Below are positions 14,006 to 23,951 of a stretch of 56,035 bases of DNA, piece by piece. The notes below the pieces were generated by a model. The model was not told where the DNA came from. It worked only from the letters and a program-made list of their open reading frames with translations, and did no database searches. The stretch comes from a virus. Its lineage: Duplodnaviria > Heunggongvirae > Uroviricota > Caudoviricetes. Each line of letters opens with the position of its first letter. Position 1 is the stretch's first letter. Made by a program: the position numbers and the translations under genes. The DNA is taken from the IMG/VR virus record IMGVR_UViG_2740892233_000026. One strand, written 5' to 3'.

Positions 14006-16049
<2,044 letters not shown>

Positions 16050-16059
16050 NNNNNNNNNN
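16050..16059. other. scaffold gap (10 N)
   Basis: 10 N; ~420 bp on each side repeated (B start, W, A 3' end) with a few substitutions. Confidence 0.95.
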
Positions 16060-18595
<2,536 letters not shown>

Positions 18596-18621
<26 letters not shown>

Positions 18622-19141
18622 TCAGCAACCCCGGTATCAGTTCATCCAGCGCGGCTGCTTTGTTCATGGCTTTGATGATATCCCGTTTCAGGAAATCAAC
18701 ATGTCGGTTTTCCAGTTCCGGAAAACGCCGCTGCACCGACAGGGGGATCCCGTCGAGAATACTGGCAATTTCACCTGCGATCCGCGACAGCACGAAAGTA
18801 CAGAATGCGGTTTCCACCACTTCAGCGGAGTCTCTGGCATTTTTCAGCTCCTGTGCGTCGGCCTGCGCACGCGTAAGTCGATGGCGTTCGTACTCAATAG
18901 TCCCTGGCTGGAGATCTGTCTCGCTGGCCTGCCGCAGTTCTTCAACTTCCCGGCGCAGCTTTTCGTTCTCAATTTCAGCATCCCTTTCGGCATACCATTT
19001 TATGGCGGCGGCAGAGTCATAAAGCACTTCATTACCCTTGCCACCACCCCGCAGAACGGGCATTCCCTGCTCCTGCCAGTTCTGAATGGTACGGATACTC
19101 GCGCCGAAAATGTCAGCCAGCTGCTTTTTGTTGACTTCCAT
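18596..19141 (-). CDS. nu1: terminase small subunit Nu1
   Basis: 181-aa ORF MEVNKKQLADIFGASIRTIQNWQEQGMPVLRGGGKGNEVLYDSAAAIKWYAERDAEIENEKLRREVEEL... lambda Nu1-like. Confidence 0.9.
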
Positions 19142-19167
19142 TGTTCATTCCACGGACAAAAACAGAG

Positions 19168-19177
19168 NNNNNNNNNN
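19168..19177. other. scaffold gap (10 N)
   Basis: 10 N; ~165 bp flanking duplication of Nu1 5' end. Confidence 0.95.
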
Positions 19178-19314
19178 ACGGCGGCAGAGTCATAAAGCAC
19201 CTCATTACCCTTGCCACCGCCTCGCAGAACGGGCATTCCCTGTTCCTGCCAGTTCTGAATGGTACGGATACTCGCACCGAAAATGTCAGCCAGCTGCTTT
19301 TTGTTGACTTCCAT
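19178..19314 (-). CDS. nu1: Nu1 5' fragment (duplicate, truncated by gap)
   Basis: Minus-strand ATG 19314; MEVNKKQLADIFGASIRTIQNWQEQGMPVLRGGGKGNEVLYDSAA then gap. Confidence 0.6.
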
Positions 19315-19491
19315 TGTTCATTCCACGGACAAAAACAGAGAAAGGAAACGACAGAGGCCAAAAAGCCCGTTTTCAGCACCTGTCGTTTCCTTTCTTTTCA
19401 GGGGGTATTTTAAATAAAAACATTAAGTTACGACGAAGAAGAACGGAAACACCTTAAACCGGAAAATTTTCATAAATAGCGAAAACCCGCG

Positions 19492-19503
19492 AGGTCGCCG
19501 CCC
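19492..19503. other. cos: cos site cohesive-end sequence (cosN), with cosB toward Nu1
   Basis: AGGTCGCCGCCC (complement of lambda 12-nt cohesive end GGGCGGCGACCT) ~180 bp upstream of Nu1 start; flanking sequence matches remembered lambda left and right ends. Confidence 0.75.
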
Positions 19504-19709
19504 CGTAACCTGTCGGATCGCCGGAAAGGACCCGCAAAATGATAATAATTATCATCTACATGAGGTTTATCACGACATGTGTGTACGCCATCAAACCACG
19601 AGAAATAATCAATTATTACGCAGGTATCGTATTAATTGATCTGCATCAAATTAGCGTAAAAGCAACTTCAGATAATACAAATCAGCAACACTGAATACGG
19701 GGCAACATT

Positions 19710-19934
19710 ATGTCATCAAAGAACAGAACCCGCAGAACAACAACCCGCAACATCCGATTTCCAAACCAGATAATTGAACAAATTAACATCGCTCTTGACC
19801 TGAAAGGTTCAGGTAATTTTTCAGCGTGGGTTATTGAAGCCTGCAGAAGAAGATTAATTAATGAAAAATATTCTCAATTTGTACCCAACAAAGACAAACA
19901 CGACCAGAGCACCTGTTCAGACAGGTTTACTTAA
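19710..19934 (+). CDS. conserved lambdoid hypothetical protein (lambda right-arm terminal ORF homolog)
   Basis: 74-aa ORF MSSKNRTRRTTTRNIRFPNQIIEQINIALDLKGSGNFSAWVIEACRRRL...; resembles the ORF at the lambda right end; convergent with PerC-like gene. Confidence 0.65.
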   Translation: MSSKNRTRRTTTRNIRFPNQIIEQINIALDLKGSGNFSAWVIEACRRRLINEKYSQFVPNKDKHDQSTCSDRFT

Positions 19935-19950
19935 ACGACTTATATATGAC

Positions 19951-19979
19951 ACAAAAAGCGACCACTAAAGTCGCTTTTT
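19951..19979. terminator. bidirectional rho-independent terminator
   Basis: A-run, GCGAC-cactaaa-GTCGC hairpin, T-run between convergent ORFs. Confidence 0.5.
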
Positions 19980-20015
19980 CTTATGGTAACAGGCAATAAC
20001 TCTCTCAGATATTTT

Positions 20016-20330
20016 TTAGCATTTTTTTGACCGCGCGTTTCCGGACGTATTCTGTTCTCCTGTCCCTTTATATCGTCGGAATACCCGCCGCTCTTCAAAT
20101 CCCATTCCCAACTCAGAATGTAGTCTGTTGACCGCTTGTTTTATTTCGGTCAGGTTCACCGGTGAAACCGGAGTCCGGCGCGCCTTACGCAAACACTCTG
20201 CTCGTTTCTGTGCCGCCACTTTTCTTTTCTGGTCATCACTTAGCTGTACCATCACTTTTGCCCATCGTTCAGCTGCTCTCCGGTACAGTCCTTTTTTCTC
20301 CAGACATTCTGCCACGTGATCATGTAGCAT
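20016..20330 (-). CDS. PerC-family transcriptional regulator homolog
   Basis: 104-aa ORF with LEKKGLYRRAAERWAKV motif typical of PerC/Pch proteins; ATG with GGAGG 7 nt upstream. Confidence 0.7.
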   Translation of the reverse strand: MLHDHVAECLEKKGLYRRAAERWAKVMVQLSDDQKRKVAAQKRAECLRKARRTPVSPVNLTEIKQAVNRLHSELGMGFEERRVFRRYKGTGEQNTSGNARSKKC

Positions 20331-20795
20331 AAGTGACCTCCGATTATCTACAGACTGCCATCCTGAATTTACCTTCCCTTAATGAAATAACAATAAAAAA
20401 CAAACCACGCAAAAACAATAAAACAACACACAAAAAAAACTAAATAATAAACAAAAATAATCACCTTATTTTATTATTTTTTGAGGGGGCAATTACTGAA
20501 CAAAAAACGCTGACTATATACTCAAAACCAAACAACTATTCTGCCAATCAGGTATCATGGCAACACACGGAATTACCGTGTTTTTGCCTTCTCTGCCCAT
20601 ACAATACGGGCATATACTTCATACTCTATTGTAATATTTCTATCCATGCGCCCCACTCCATTTACCTGTAAATAATATTCAAAATATTTATCACAGAAAT
20701 CGTTTTTGGCCATGAACTGAGCACACTATAAAGTCCGGAACTGACTCTTTGTTAAATTACCTTAACGTTACCAGTAACATATTCATAACAAAACA

Positions 20796-21046
20796 TCACG
20801 GTATACACTGGGTACGGATATATTCCTGTGCTCCTTCCAGTTGCTTCTGCATTGCCATCAGCCGTTCTCTGAGGATGAAATAATCCCGTTCAGCGGCTTC
20901 TGCCAGTCGGGGACCGGTTGCATTACCCACGCCGGAGGTGATGGGGGCTTTACGCAAGGAGCCTGGACAGTTGGCGTTGATGCGCAGGCGCTTACGACCA
21001 GCGGCAACATCAGCACGCAGAGTTTCATTTTCAGCTCTCGCATCGG
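20796..21046 (-). CDS. Rz: i-spanin Rz, 3' fragment (truncated by gap)
   Basis: ...[23 protein letters not shown]...[31 protein letters not shown], Rz-like C-terminus. Confidence 0.75.
20858..21043 (-). CDS. Rz1: o-spanin Rz1 (embedded in Rz, +1 frame)
   Basis: [24 protein letters not shown]...[26 protein letters not shown]; lipobox and proline-rich, as lambda Rz1. Confidence 0.75.
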   Translation of the reverse strand: MRELKMKLCVLMLPLVVSACASTPTVQAPCVKPPSPPAWVMQPVPDWQKPLNGIISSSENG

Positions 21047-21056
21047 NNNNNNNNNN
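21047..21056. other. scaffold gap (10 N)
   Basis: 10 N; sequence before gap matches an internal part of the Rz copy at 22130-22175. Confidence 0.95.
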
Positions 21057-21251
21057 GAGAAGGCTGGCAACAGATGCAACGCATCTGCGTCCGGCCAGCA
21101 TGACAAATAACGAGAAATGAACGTTCGGTTACAGGAGCAGGTACCCACTGTCCTCCAACAATATTTCATCTTCATACCCGGCGGAACAAGACTTACCCAG
21201 CCGGAATGTACAGAATAACAACAGAGTGATAATTAATTTCTGATGAAATAA

Positions 21252-21584
21252 TCAGGGTGCAGAAGGACTAAAGATAAACGTTTTCTTCACGCCTTTACGC
21301 GGCCTGTCCTTCTCAAATCGCCATTTTGCCATCGCCTTTACAACCTGCTCATCAAACAGATGGTGCGGCTCTGAACGGATAAACTCAATTCGGGTGACAG
21401 TACCATCAGCACCAATATCAAACTTCACATCAACCCGTCCCTTTATATAATTTGCCGCTGCATAGGCCGGATATTGTGGTAATGCCTTAACCAACTGTCG
21501 GGGCATATCTGTTTTATGTTGCGTACAGCCCATAACCAGAGAAGACAACAAAATAATTAACGGAAGATTTCTTTTCATTTTCAT
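21252..21584 (-). CDS. lipoprotein with TonB C-terminal-like domain
   Basis: Signal peptide and lipobox MKMKRNLPLIILLSSLVMGC; LPQYPAYAAANYIKGRVDVKFDIGADGTVTRIEFIRSEPHHLFDEQVVKAMAKWRFE aligns motif-by-motif with E. coli TonB C-terminus (QPQYPARAQALRIEGQVKVKFDV..DGRV...AMRRWRYE); sits downstream of Rz/Rz1. Confidence 0.7.
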   Translation of the reverse strand: MKMKRNLPLIILLSSLVMGCTQHKTDMPRQLVKALPQYPAYAAANYIKGRVDVKFDIGADGTVTRIEFIRSEPHHLFDEQVVKAMAKWRFEKDRPRKGVKKTFIFSPSAP

Positions 21585-21598
21585 TCCCGGCACAGATA

Positions 21599-21615
21599 AG
21601 AATAAGTCTTATTCT
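21599..21615. promoter_or_regulatory. 17-bp palindrome AGAATAAG-T-CTTATTCT (operator-like, Fur-box-like) upstream of the lipoprotein gene
   Basis: Perfect 8-bp inverted repeat within GATAAGAATAAGTCTTATTCTAAC, 15-31 bp upstream of the ATG. Confidence 0.4.
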
Positions 21616-21916
21616 AACAATGCCACCCTGTCGGCCATCAATCCTCTGCTTAATGGCAACGACAATTATCCGACTTAAATCACAAATCAGACACATGACA
21701 TAACAGGTCTTGCGAGGTAACACATCGTCCGGTTTCTTCCACCATCGCACCGAACCAGCGACCATGAGGGGACAACGCCGCGCTCCGTTAACGCGGTAAA
21801 CCCCGGTGTGTATCGTTTTTGATTATCCCCGCACACTCGCGCAGAGGAGTCTCCCTGTCGGGCTGCGGTCTCTGTTAATGAGGGAATACAGCGACGATAC
21901 GGCGTATCAGCAAAAC

Positions 21917-22368
21917 TTAGTTCAGGCACTGAGTGCGGATATAGTCCTGTGCCCCTTCCAGCTGCTTCTGCATTGTCATCAACCGTTCTCTGAGGATGAA
22001 ATAATCCCGTTCAGCGGTGTCTGCCAGTCGGGGGCCGGTTGCATTATCCACGCCGGAGGTGCCGGTGGCTTCACGCACGGTACCGGAGCAGGTGGCGTTG
22101 ATCCGCAGGCGCTTACGACCAGCGGCAACATCAGCACGCAGAGTTTCATTTTCAGCTCTCGCATCGGCTAATTCCCTCGAGTATTTTGCATCGAGCTCAG
22201 CAACATCGCGCTGGCGCACCTGCATATCAGTAATGGTTGCGTTTGCCAGCTCCAGCTCTCTGGCTTTTTTATCGCGCTGCGCTTTGTAGGTGATGACGTT
22301 ATCGCGGTAATGATTCAGCCCCAGACTAAGCGCACCACAGACCACCAGCAGAATAACGGTAAACGCGG
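21917..22368 (-). CDS. Rz: i-spanin Rz (5' end cut by gap)
   Basis: ...[46 protein letters not shown]...[31 protein letters not shown]. Confidence 0.8.
21979..22164 (-). CDS. Rz1: o-spanin Rz1
   Basis: [61 protein letters not shown]. Confidence 0.8.
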
Positions 22369-22378
22369 NNNNNNNNNN
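22369..22378. other. scaffold gap (10 N)
   Basis: 10 N; sequence before gap recurs at ~22440-22488 after it. Confidence 0.95.
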
Positions 22379-22504
22379 TGCGATGATGGATGTGGCTTTA
22401 TCGCGCTGCTCTTTGTAAGCGATGGCGTTATCACGGTAATGATTCAGCCCCAGACTAAGCGCACCACAGACCACCAGCAGAATAACGGTAAACGCGGAAA
22501 GCAT
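22379..22504 (-). CDS. Rz: Rz 5' fragment (variant matching the Rz 3' part at 34674-35019)
   Basis: ATG 22504; [42 protein letters not shown] then gap; overlaps in sequence with start of the Rz piece at 34674. Confidence 0.6.
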
Positions 22505-22515
22505 TCGGTTTATGC

Positions 22516-22665
22516 TCACCCCACCAGCCCTGCCGAAGTCAACGCCATCCAGGTTATGGAAAGAAAAAGAACAACCAGCATTAGTGAAAATGAAATACCG
22601 ACGATTACACAAAGGCCCTTCGCCAGCGTTATGAGTTTATCCGATATCATTAGCCACCACTCCAT
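22516..22665 (-). CDS. small hydrophobic protein (49 aa), copy 1
   Basis: MEWWLMISDKLITLAKGLCVIVGISFSLMLVVLFLSITWMALTSAGLVG; ends 11 nt before Rz start; not in supplied ORF track (below length cutoff). Confidence 0.35.
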   Translation of the reverse strand: MEWWLMISDKLITLAKGLCVIVGISFSLMLVVLFLSITWMALTSAGLVG

Positions 22666-22681
22666 CAATCCGCCTTTGTTA

Positions 22682-22691
22682 NNNNNNNNNN
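22682..22691. other. scaffold gap (10 N)
   Basis: 10 N. Confidence 0.95.
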
Positions 22692-22772
22692 GCGGTAATG
22701 ATTCAGCCCCAGACTAAGTGCACCACAGGCTACCAGCAGGACAATAATCACCACACACAGAACACGGTTCAT
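22692..22772 (-). CDS. Rz: Rz 5' fragment (another variant)
   Basis: ATG 22772 preceded by [34 protein letters not shown] then gap. Confidence 0.55.
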
Positions 22773-22779
22773 CTCTCTT

Positions 22780-22929
22780 TCACCCCACCAGTCCCGATAA
22801 CGTCAGGACTCGCCAAGCGGTGGAAAAGAAAATGGCAACCAGAATGACTAAAAATGAAATGCCGACGATTACACAGAGGATCTTCGCCAGCGTTATGAGT
22901 TTATCCGATATCATTAGCCACCACTCCAT
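22780..22929 (-). CDS. small hydrophobic protein (49 aa), copy 2
   Basis: MEWWLMISDKLITLAKILCVIVGISFLVILVAIFFSTAWRVLTLSGLVG; start overlaps upstream stop (TGATG); conserved with copy 1. Confidence 0.35.
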   Translation of the reverse strand: MEWWLMISDKLITLAKILCVIVGISFLVILVAIFFSTAWRVLTLSGLVG

Positions 22930-23350
22930 CAATCCGCCTTTGTTATTTTCCCTTTGCCTGTATCAGCCAGGACAAAATCAATCAGCAGATTCGCTTCGTT
23001 TATCAATGTGCGGATTTTTGATACATGCGCGGATTTAACCTGTTTCCACTCATTCAGCCCGGTAGCAAACACACTGGCAATGTTTTTATCCCGTTTCATG
23101 TCAGCGCAGGCCTGATTGAGTTCTTCCATCACACTCATTCGACGGGGATTAACGACACCCCCCTTCGTCCAGTATTCATAGAGAACATCGTCGCACTCTT
23201 CCTGATACTGGATTACCTTGTCGCGGATTTCGGGTTTTACTTTGTTGGGATTGATGGTTTGTAACCAGCCTGCAAGTTTTCGAAGTGGCAGGGACACCAT
23301 ATTGCGTCGTTTCCCATCCTCAGCAACCATAACGATTTCCGTTATAGTTG
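22929..23350 (-). CDS. phage protein of unknown function, 3' part (possible antirepressor-like gene upstream of Rz; truncated by gap)
   Basis: In-frame ...SLPLRKLAGWLQTINPNKVKPEIRGKVIQYQEECDDVLYEYWTKG...ANLLIDFVLADTGKGKITKAD; a duplicated copy of part of it follows in 23361-23602. Confidence 0.4.
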
Positions 23351-23360
23351 NNNNNNNNNN
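23351..23360. other. scaffold gap (10 N)
   Basis: 10 N; ~240 bp near-identical flanks. Confidence 0.95.
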
Positions 23361-23602
23361 AGCCTGATTGAGTTCTTCCATCACACTCATTCGACGGGGA
23401 TTAACGACAAAACCCTTCGTCCAGTATTCATAGAGAACATCGTCACACTCTTCCTGATACTGGATTACCTTGCCGCGGATTTCGGGTTTTACTTTGTTGG
23501 GATTGATGGTTTGTAACCAGCCTGCAAGTTTTCGAAGCGGCAGGGACACCATATTGCGTCGTTTCCCATCCTCAGCAACCATAACGATTTCCGTTATAGT
23601 TG

Positions 23603-23612
23603 NNNNNNNNNN
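23603..23612. other. scaffold gap (10 N)
   Basis: 10 N. Confidence 0.95.
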
Positions 23613-23706
23613 CGATGGCGTTATCACGGTAATGATTAACAGCCCATGACTGGCAGGCGATAATGCAGATAACCAGAGCGGAGATAATAACGGTTACCCT
23701 GCTCAT
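23613..23706 (-). CDS. Rz: Rz 5' fragment (duplicate of the endolysin-Rz junction at 24720-24810)
   Basis: Minus ATG 23706; [31 protein letters not shown]... Confidence 0.5.
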
Positions 23707-23715
23707 TGTTGCCCC

Positions 23716-23725
23716 NNNNNNNNNN
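23716..23725. other. scaffold gap (10 N)
   Basis: 10 N. Confidence 0.95.
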
Positions 23726-23951
23726 CTTATTAAGGAAAAAAACAGCCAGCACTGACTTTCGGTGGAGAGGTGCTGGCTCAAAAGGATAGATGTACTTCAC
23801 ATGTTGCTTCTATATGGCAGTACATTTTCTGACAGACAGTGACGGATGTTGTCAAGATATTGTGTCATTTATAACCTGAATCAGGGGAGGCCGGAATGTT
23901 ATCTGGCATTTTTAGCAGAGCCTGAATGCCATAATCACGGCTCCCGGCGTT

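Follow-up and report, generated by a model that had tools for sequence, protein, structure and literature searches.

The viral record IMGVR_UViG_2740892233_000026 of IMG/VR, 56,035 nucleotides long and here called the window, carries on its minus strand, just after the spanin genes Rz and Rz1, a small gene for a lipoprotein whose mature part is a TonB C-terminal domain. We refer to the product as the TonB_C lipoprotein. The features of the gene itself are the following.

21252..21578, minus strand, stop codon included: coding sequence of the TonB_C lipoprotein precursor, 108 amino acids, identical to RefSeq WP_000828070.1 'TonB family protein'
21267..21503, minus strand: TonB C-terminal domain, residues 26-104, equivalent to residues 153-231 of E. 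coli TonB (profiles, phmmer, AlphaFold2 model, Foldseek)
21525..21578, minus strand: predicted signal peptide (residues 1-17) and lipobox Cys18 (LVMG/C), read from the sequence
21585..21588, minus strand: Shine-Dalgarno-like GGGA, 6 nt 5′ of the ATG at 21578, read from the sequence; phage 21 has AGGAA

The minus-strand open reading frame (ORF) at 21252-21593 begins with GTG, followed by two in-frame ATGs at 21584 and 21578. Phage 21 and at least 14 E. coli copies have ATA in place of the first of these; the second is conserved and has the GGGA 6 nt upstream. For these reasons the start codon is most likely ATG 21578, as judged from the aligned alleles, and the predicted product begins MKRNLPL and has 108 residues (MKRNLPLIILLSSLVMGCTQHK...). 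The original prediction, read from the letters of the window alone, had described a lipoprotein of 110 residues; the lipoprotein ORF stands, and the length should be amended, since the start that it implies is not conserved.

The mature lipoprotein is a stand-alone TonB C-terminal domain, and this assignment is secure. Pfam TonB_C (PF03544) matches with E = 5.5e-15 and 56 bits, against a gathering cutoff of 24.6, and TIGR01352 with 56.5 bits against a cutoff of 27.1; the Pfam search returned TonB_C and TonB_2 only, and no similarity to Cor or Llp. In a phmmer search of the PDB, residues 28-106 align without gaps to residues 153-231 of the E. coli TonB C-terminal domain (CTD; 1u07), with 39% identity and E = 4.7e-16. 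The AlphaFold2 (AF2) model has a predicted local distance difference test score (pLDDT) above 93 for the domain and the order β-α-β-β-α-β. The equivalent of β3, the strand that pairs with the Ton box in TonB, is present at residues 94-104. Foldseek superposes the model on the free CTD (1u07_A) with E = 3.7e-8 and a root-mean-square deviation (rmsd) of 0.8 Å over 79 columns, and on BtuB-bound TonB (2gsk_B) with a template modelling (TM) score of 0.91 and an rmsd of 1.1 Å. The PDB fold matches at E ≤ 0.001 are exclusively TonB-type C-terminal domains, domain III of TolA being a distant match, and the viral fold library BFVD gave no match at E ≤ 0.001.

The remainder of TonB is missing. The lipoprotein sequence has no N-terminal transmembrane anchor and no Pro-rich spacer, and the full-length TonB models (PRK10819 equivalogs) match only over their C-terminal ~80 positions (model ~152-240), with 49.5-73 bits against cutoffs of 265-448; the pair 73 versus 315 bits illustrates how far under the cutoff the scores lie. 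Thus, the original prediction was right that the mature part matches the E. coli TonB CTD and that the anchor and spacer are absent, and two of the checks that it proposed, a Pfam TonB_C search and a superposition of an AlphaFold model on the TonB CTD, including the BtuB complex, both came out in its favor.

The Postle laboratory has listed residues of functional importance in the last 90 of TonB, namely Y163, F180, G186, F202, W213, Y215, and F230 (bioRxiv 10.1101/2021.12.08.471779). Six of the seven are identical in the lipoprotein and the other, Y215, is conservatively replaced by Phe, a pattern that holds throughout the family described below.

The N-terminus of the precursor has basic residues, a hydrophobic core, and the lipobox LVMG/C18, with Thr at position +2 (MKRNLPLIILLSSLVMG/CTQ). 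The lipobox Cys is kept in 12 of 14 aligned family members, and the +2 residue is Thr or Ser in all eight translated genes, and Asp in none. In E. coli, lipoprotein sorting is governed by the +2 rule. Because the residue at +2 is Thr, the TonB_C lipoprotein is predicted to be sorted to the outer membrane. The stretch between Cys18 and the start of the domain is only eight residues long (CTQHKTDM); a lipobox and a short tether stand where E. coli TonB has its transmembrane anchor, Pro-rich spacer, and coupling to ExbB/ExbD.

The gene is common in prophages of enterohaemorrhagic E. coli (EHEC). It is not present in prophage Sp15 of strain Sakai. Of 5426 complete E. coli genomes, 1519 (~28%) share at least part of a 701-bp query taken around the gene, and 414 (~8%) match at least 80% of it, with up to six places per genome; the annotation is 'TonB family protein'. 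Only 15 of 50,697 phage records encode it, including Stx1a-converting phages, JLK-2012, phage 21, ev017, Perceval, and a Klebsiella phage, and a scan of IMG/VR returned near-identical E. coli copies only. The labels in phage records include 'TonB C-terminal domain protein' (phage 21), 'TonB fragment', and 'partial tonB-like membrane protein encoded within prophage CP-933N' (EDL933). The likeness to TonB is already in public annotation, then, and the gene is not new as an annotation. A full-text literature search turned up no functional work on a TonB C-domain of a phage or of a lipoprotein, and a 2024 review of superinfection exclusion lists Cor and nothing resembling the TonB_C lipoprotein. 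A paper on type XI secretion system (T11SS) cargo that mentions TonB C-terminal domains proved irrelevant to the lipoprotein.

The gene is under purifying selection. The alleles of the window and of phage 21 (72% nucleotide identity, no indels) give a ratio of nonsynonymous to synonymous substitution rates (dN/dS) of 0.12 for the whole gene and 0.11 for the domain alone. Among E. coli variants of the phage 21-type allele, several carry a frameshift immediately ahead of the final β strand, and one such cluster comprises 130 member sequences, which suggests recurrent inactivation in some cryptic prophages.

An exhaustive HMMER search retrieved proteins of ~105-135 residues that share the lipobox and TonB_C architecture, and a scan of one genome per species, with a six-sequence alignment as query, gave 13 loci. 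The Raoultella and Klebsiella homologue is chromosomal and adjoins lacZ/lacI. That of Serratia grimesii lies between ycgN-like and dsbB/nhaB/fadR-like ORFs (named by eye from their translations), and that of Erwinia beside an ABC transporter. In Sodalis sp. RH21, the homologue is in a prophage with the order Q, holin, signal-anchor-release (SAR) endolysin, Rz, TonB_C gene, TerS, and TerL. Since the loci are found both in chromosomes and in the phage slot, the family is a mobile single-gene unit of chromosomes and of the lambdoid post-lysis slot. The chromosomal relatives, annotated as 'TonB family protein' in Raoultella, Klebsiella, Serratia, and Erwinia, have the same ~110-residue lipobox and TonB_C architecture at 38-51% identity; they differ in their non-phage loci and in their near-canonical Fur boxes, and no characterization of them was found in the literature.

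The Fur boxes of the relatives provide the main new result, one that the original prediction did not foresee. Upstream of the homologue in Raoultella lignicola and Klebsiella sp. R390 is TGATAATTATTATCA, with no mismatches to the 7-1-7 Fur motif, and in three other Raoultella and Klebsiella genomes it is TGAGAATTATTATCA, with one mismatch. Against the 19-mer form, the Serratia site GATAATGATTTTCATTACC and the Sodalis prophage site GATAATGATTCTCATTAAC have two mismatches each, and the Erwinia site GAGAATGATTTTCATTATA has three. These homologue sites are the best or second-best of ~15,000-24,600 positions per locus, and the pooled background of sites with four or fewer mismatches is ~1e-4 per position, the homologue sites included. 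At least four independent lineages therefore have a near-canonical Fur box immediately 5′ of the homologue and, because the boxes recur at the same position, it is very likely that the family is iron-regulated through Fur, as far as the upstream sequences can tell. A MAFFT alignment places the palindrome of the window in register with the homologue Fur boxes, including those of Sodalis and Erwinia. The phage-borne copies tend to be degraded, the window having six mismatches and the Klebsiella phage seven, and phage 21 lacking a match altogether, while the Sodalis prophage keeps a good box.

The corresponding region of the window contains these features.

21599..21615, no strand: perfect 17-bp palindrome (8-1-8), AGAATAAGTCTTATTCT, 21-37 nt upstream of the start
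21595..21613, plus strand: best 19-bp match to the Fur consensus, GATAAGAATAAGTCTTATT, 13 of 19 positions, by consensus comparison
21611..21619, minus strand: possible extended -10, TGTTAGAAT, identified by eye; overlaps the left arm of the palindrome

The palindrome is as perfect as the original prediction had it, while its likeness to a Fur box, claimed in the same place, is weak: the match is 13/19, and it is absent from phage 21. Against the 7-1-7 form, the palindrome has five mismatches. Written as GATAAG-AATAAG-T-CTTATT, the site consists of three (G/A)ATAAG hexamers in the classical arrangement forward-forward-N-reverse, in each of which G replaces the final T of the consensus; seen in this way, the palindrome would be the core of a degenerate Fur box, made of a hexamer, N, and an inverted hexamer. 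Taken alone, the palindrome is unexceptional: perfect 8-1-8 palindromes number three in the window, compared with a mean of 1.56 in block-wise composition shuffles, and 19 of ~111,000 window positions match the Fur consensus GATAATGATAATCATTATC at least as well as the 13/19 site. For scale, the best Fur match in the 150 nt upstream of the chromosomal tonB of NZ_AP018802 is also 13/19, in a region that lies beside a recombinase fragment and may not be native. The palindrome is nearly invariant across 80 E. coli copies; the phage 21 allele has a 13-nt indel at this place and lacks the right arm. A reading of the palindrome as a repeated CI-type operator was discarded, since the window holds no second copy of it within three mismatches. 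Hence iron regulation, which had been suggested for the window gene, is well supported for the family from its relatives' boxes and only possible, rather less likely than not, for the window copy itself.

The neighbors of the gene are listed below.

21917..22368, minus strand: Rz (i-spanin), cut by a run of N (Pfam PF03245, 169.5 bits)
21979-22164, minus strand: Rz1 (o-spanin), embedded in Rz (Pfam PF06085, 76.1 bits)
21057..21120, plus strand: 3′ end of a YlcI/YnfO (DUF3950) gene, convergent, truncated by a scaffold gap, mapped from an annotated complete genome

The contig piece that bears the TonB_C gene is 1312 bp long (21057-22368) and belongs to a scaffold with N gaps. The window as a whole is assembled from short contigs of lambdoid-prophage repeats that have collapsed, its gaps being 20 runs of 10 N (at 864, 1128, and 4751, and so on to 34664), and it contains duplicated prophage fragments, such as several Rz 3′ ends and Nu1-like 5′ ends. 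Because of these gaps and duplications, the gene neighborhoods of the window are unreliable, and the gene context was therefore taken from complete genomes. Rz/Rz1 lie 323 nt upstream of the TonB_C gene on the same strand. A complete genome whose DNA here is 100% identical has the genes in the order holin, YdfR, lysozyme, antirepressor, Rz, TonB_C gene, ylcI/ynfO, HNH, TerS, TerL, capsid, and portal; all but ylcI are on one strand, and therefore the TonB_C gene is in the late operon or is read through by it.

This post-lysis, pre-terminase slot is common to the E. coli prophages, phage 21, the Sodalis prophage, and the Klebsiella phage. In phage 21, a 71%-identical allele is placed after bor, and in another prophage fragment, on the adjacent scaffold piece of the window (20016-20330, minus strand), the same post-Rz slot encodes a 104-residue PerC-family activator (PF06069, 149 bits), which is probably a Pch-type regulator of EHEC. 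Given Rz/Rz1 upstream and bor or perC in the same slot elsewhere, the location had been fairly described as a bor/cor slot. The lambdoid morons bor (λ and phage 21) and perC/pch (EHEC prophages), also small accessory genes, share with the TonB_C gene this position between Rz/Rz1 and terminase/cos, and Bor is also a lipoprotein. The proteins are, however, unrelated to the TonB_C lipoprotein, and bor runs against the late operon, whereas the TonB_C gene runs with it.

Some observations on the surrounding DNA may be recorded here. The noncoding stretch between Rz or bor and the gene (window 21579-21930) is ~80% identical to that of phage 21, compared with 72% for the coding sequence; phage 21 has a 45-residue ORF annotated within it that is not preserved in the window. 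No Rfam family was found on the contig piece 21057-22368, and the RNA structure of the 352-nt region upstream of the gene is not unusual (z = -0.88). On the plus strand at 21424-21451, inside the TonB_C gene, there is a strong antisense sigma-70-like match, TTCACA-16-TATAAT (11/12), aimed towards Rz; it may be due to chance, since shuffles of the region give 1.3 such sites. In NZ_AP018802.1 (1681000-1712000), the prophage with the TonB_C gene ends, after genes for NleH, NleF, NleG, and EspM1 and insertion sequence (IS) elements, directly beside the chromosomal tonB (1710191-1710910). This adjacency probably reflects no more than where the prophage happened to integrate, because prophages elsewhere also carry the gene.

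What might such a protein do? We propose that the lipoprotein would be held in the inner leaflet of the outer membrane, with its TonB C-domain hanging on the eight-residue tether where the Ton boxes emerge. There, the domain would bind the partners of the TonB C-terminus, in the first place the Ton boxes of FhuA, FepA, Cir, BtuB, and others, by β-strand addition, which is the mode of contact that Shultis et al. and Pawelek et al. reportedly described in 2006 for the BtuB-TonB and FhuA-TonB complexes. Lacking both an anchor in the inner membrane and a connection to ExbB/ExbD, the lipoprotein should be unable to deliver energy; it would be a competitive, non-productive occupant that blocks the transporter and does not energize it. 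The result would be less TonB-dependent entry of phages, colicins, and microcins, and also of siderophores and vitamin B12. The prophage would carry the gene as a post-lysis moron, transcribed with the late operon and possibly also from an iron-responsive promoter of its own, as in the relatives.

The scheme has precedents. TonB is limiting, and transporters compete for it (bioRxiv 10.1101/2021.12.08.471779). A periplasmic TonB domain inhibits TonB-dependent transport, as the relevant passages of PMC9841981 describe for the work of Howard et al. 2001 and of Tuckman and Osburne 1992. The exported fragments of Howard et al. are, like the TonB_C lipoprotein, unanchored TonB C-domains in the periplasm, and according to the same passages they inhibit iron import via TonB-dependent transporters. 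They were soluble, overexpressed laboratory constructs, whereas the lipoprotein is the product of a natural mobile gene, under purifying selection and with a predicted lipid anchor, so that inhibition by the lipoprotein would be an extension by analogy. Llp of T5 and Cor of φ80 and N15 are likewise small phage lipoproteins, placed in the inner leaflet of the outer membrane, which act on FhuA from its periplasmic face, an established strategy of phage exclusion. Their fold and sequence are unrelated to those of the TonB_C lipoprotein, and they are FhuA-specific and allosteric, whereas the expected targets of a TonB mimic would be many transporters, reached via the shared Ton box. The C-terminal domain of E. 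coli TonB (1U07, 1XX3; BtuB complex 2GSK, FhuA complex 2GRX) is, as described above, the same Pfam domain with the same fold.

The decoy idea is plausible because the functional residues are kept, an outer-membrane tether is predicted, and a periplasmic TonB domain is known to inhibit transport. We infer the outer-membrane location, the Ton-box binding, the inhibition, and any Fur control of the window copy. An outer-membrane-tethered, non-energized TonB mimic that competes for Ton boxes is the best-supported mechanism, and we would give it a probability of about 0.4. It is tempting to go further and to see in the Fur-linked mobile family a natural dominant-negative form of TonB, ancestrally under Fur control, which by sitting on the shared Ton box would damp every TonB-dependent gate together and so bring about a broad exclusion of phages, colicins, and siderophore-microcins under the iron starvation that derepresses their receptors, and which lambdoid phages would have captured as a moron; this wider proposal is tentative, and the chances are that it is not correct in full.

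Several points weigh against a TonB decoy. The main difficulty is a paradox, namely that an inhibitor of siderophore uptake would be induced by iron starvation. One possible way out is that protection is worth most when the derepressed receptors are exploited by colicins, siderophore-microcins, and phages; another is that the lipoprotein aids uptake by docking TonB or binding proteins. In addition, the homologues of Raoultella, Klebsiella, Serratia, and Erwinia are chromosomal, outside prophages, and preceded by Fur boxes; therefore, the family is not simply an anti-phage device. The tether has only eight residues, and a TonB-like docking pose may lie out of its reach from the membrane. Residue Q160 of TonB is replaced by Leu in the lipoprotein (Tyr in the phage 21 allele) and R166 by Tyr; both residues are said, in the 2006 papers on the complexes, to be implicated in Ton-box and FhuA contacts. 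The Fur match of the window copy is weak, as seen above, and a consensus promoter scan found none on the strand of the TonB_C gene, and no terminator. Production of the lipoprotein may be confined to a late stage of the lytic cycle, at which exclusion is of less consequence. Finally, the PADLOC anti-phage models include no family that matches the lipoprotein at E ≤ 1.

The second way out of the paradox leads to an alternative in which the lipoprotein is a positive accessory of iron uptake that gives the lysogen an advantage. Under iron limitation, it would aid TonB-dependent transport either by docking the TonB C-terminus, or periplasmic binding proteins, close to transporters or by holding Ton boxes in an accessible state. 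The chromosomal homologues are preceded by Fur boxes, as iron-acquisition genes are; several species of Raoultella and Klebsiella keep the position next to lacI/lacZ, a sign of some housekeeping benefit; and the aromatic residues of the TonB homodimer and of the ExbD contacts are kept in the domain. However, a domain of this kind is unable to transmit energy, and where a free TonB C-terminal domain has been tried experimentally, the sole precedent is inhibition. We therefore regard a helper function as unlikely, although it is the strongest competitor of the Ton-box decoy.

It is less probable still that the TonB-like fold serves another ligand, such as peptidoglycan, an envelope protein, or a host factor, and that the gene is an envelope or virulence moron in the manner of Bor or Lom, unrelated to Ton boxes. 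The use of the same slot by bor in phage 21 and by perC in the window is consistent with this, and so are the replacement of Q160 and R166 and the distant fold match to TolA domain III; but it would leave unexplained why precisely the residues that matter for TonB function are kept, and the Fur boxes tie the family to iron.

The existing annotation of phage proteins points in a different direction. PHROG 1267, labelled 'Rz-like spanin' in the lysis category, matches the lipoprotein with E = 1.9e-42, and the gene is co-oriented with Rz/Rz1 and directly downstream of them; the phage 21 allele, moreover, lies without a Fur box after a small ORF in the late operon. These facts would suit a lytic-cycle helper or spanin-like lysis factor, made from the late transcript only and acting in outer-membrane disruption or at the end of infection. 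Yet the prophage already has a complete Rz and Rz1, the TonB_C domain is globular, with no C-terminal transmembrane segment, coiled coil, or Pro-rich o-spanin character, and there are homologues in chromosomal, non-phage loci. A spanin identity was rejected, as the lipoprotein has no i-spanin, o-spanin, or u-spanin features, and a lytic role in general seems improbable. For the same reasons, the 'spanin' label of PHROG 1267 is most likely a positional mislabel, which could propagate into phage annotations.

That the gene is a relic without function, derived by capture of a 3′ piece of tonB, as the old 'partial' annotation, the adjacency of the prophage to tonB in one complete genome, and the frameshifted variants might suggest, is very improbable and is largely ruled out by the purifying selection and the conserved lipoprotein architecture, since the gene has acquired a signal peptide and a lipobox, has a dN/dS of 0.12 and only 39% identity to E. 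coli TonB, and is kept as intact alleles across genera.

The family presents the TonB_C domain as a lipoprotein by itself, in a mobile and Fur-linked setting. Many phages (T1, φ80, H8), colicins, microcins, and siderophore-antibiotic conjugates enter cells through TonB-dependent transporters. If the lipoprotein is indeed a Ton-box decoy, a natural uncoupler of transporters from TonB would represent a new form of superinfection exclusion, broad and receptor-independent, that is aimed at energy coupling, and it could alter the response of EHEC lysogens to competitors, to phage therapy, and to 'Trojan horse' antibiotics. If, instead, it helps iron uptake, the prophage would bring its host a fitness factor. 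In both cases, the chromosomal relatives with their Fur boxes would be an unstudied member of the enterobacterial iron regulon.

A separate observation concerns the best Fur-consensus match of the window, which is found elsewhere, at 19535-19559, with three mismatches to the 19-mer and a perfect 7-1-7 form. It contains the palindrome ATGATAATAATTATCAT at 19539-19555. The match lies 5 nt from a cosQ-like GGGTCCT and ~40 nt from a λ-type cohesive end; a DUF3950 (YlcI/YnfO) ORF at 19710-19934 follows ~155 nt downstream. The annotated cosQ of phage 21 has a related sequence beside it. The element may serve in packaging, may be a Fur site of the ylcI-like gene, or may do both.

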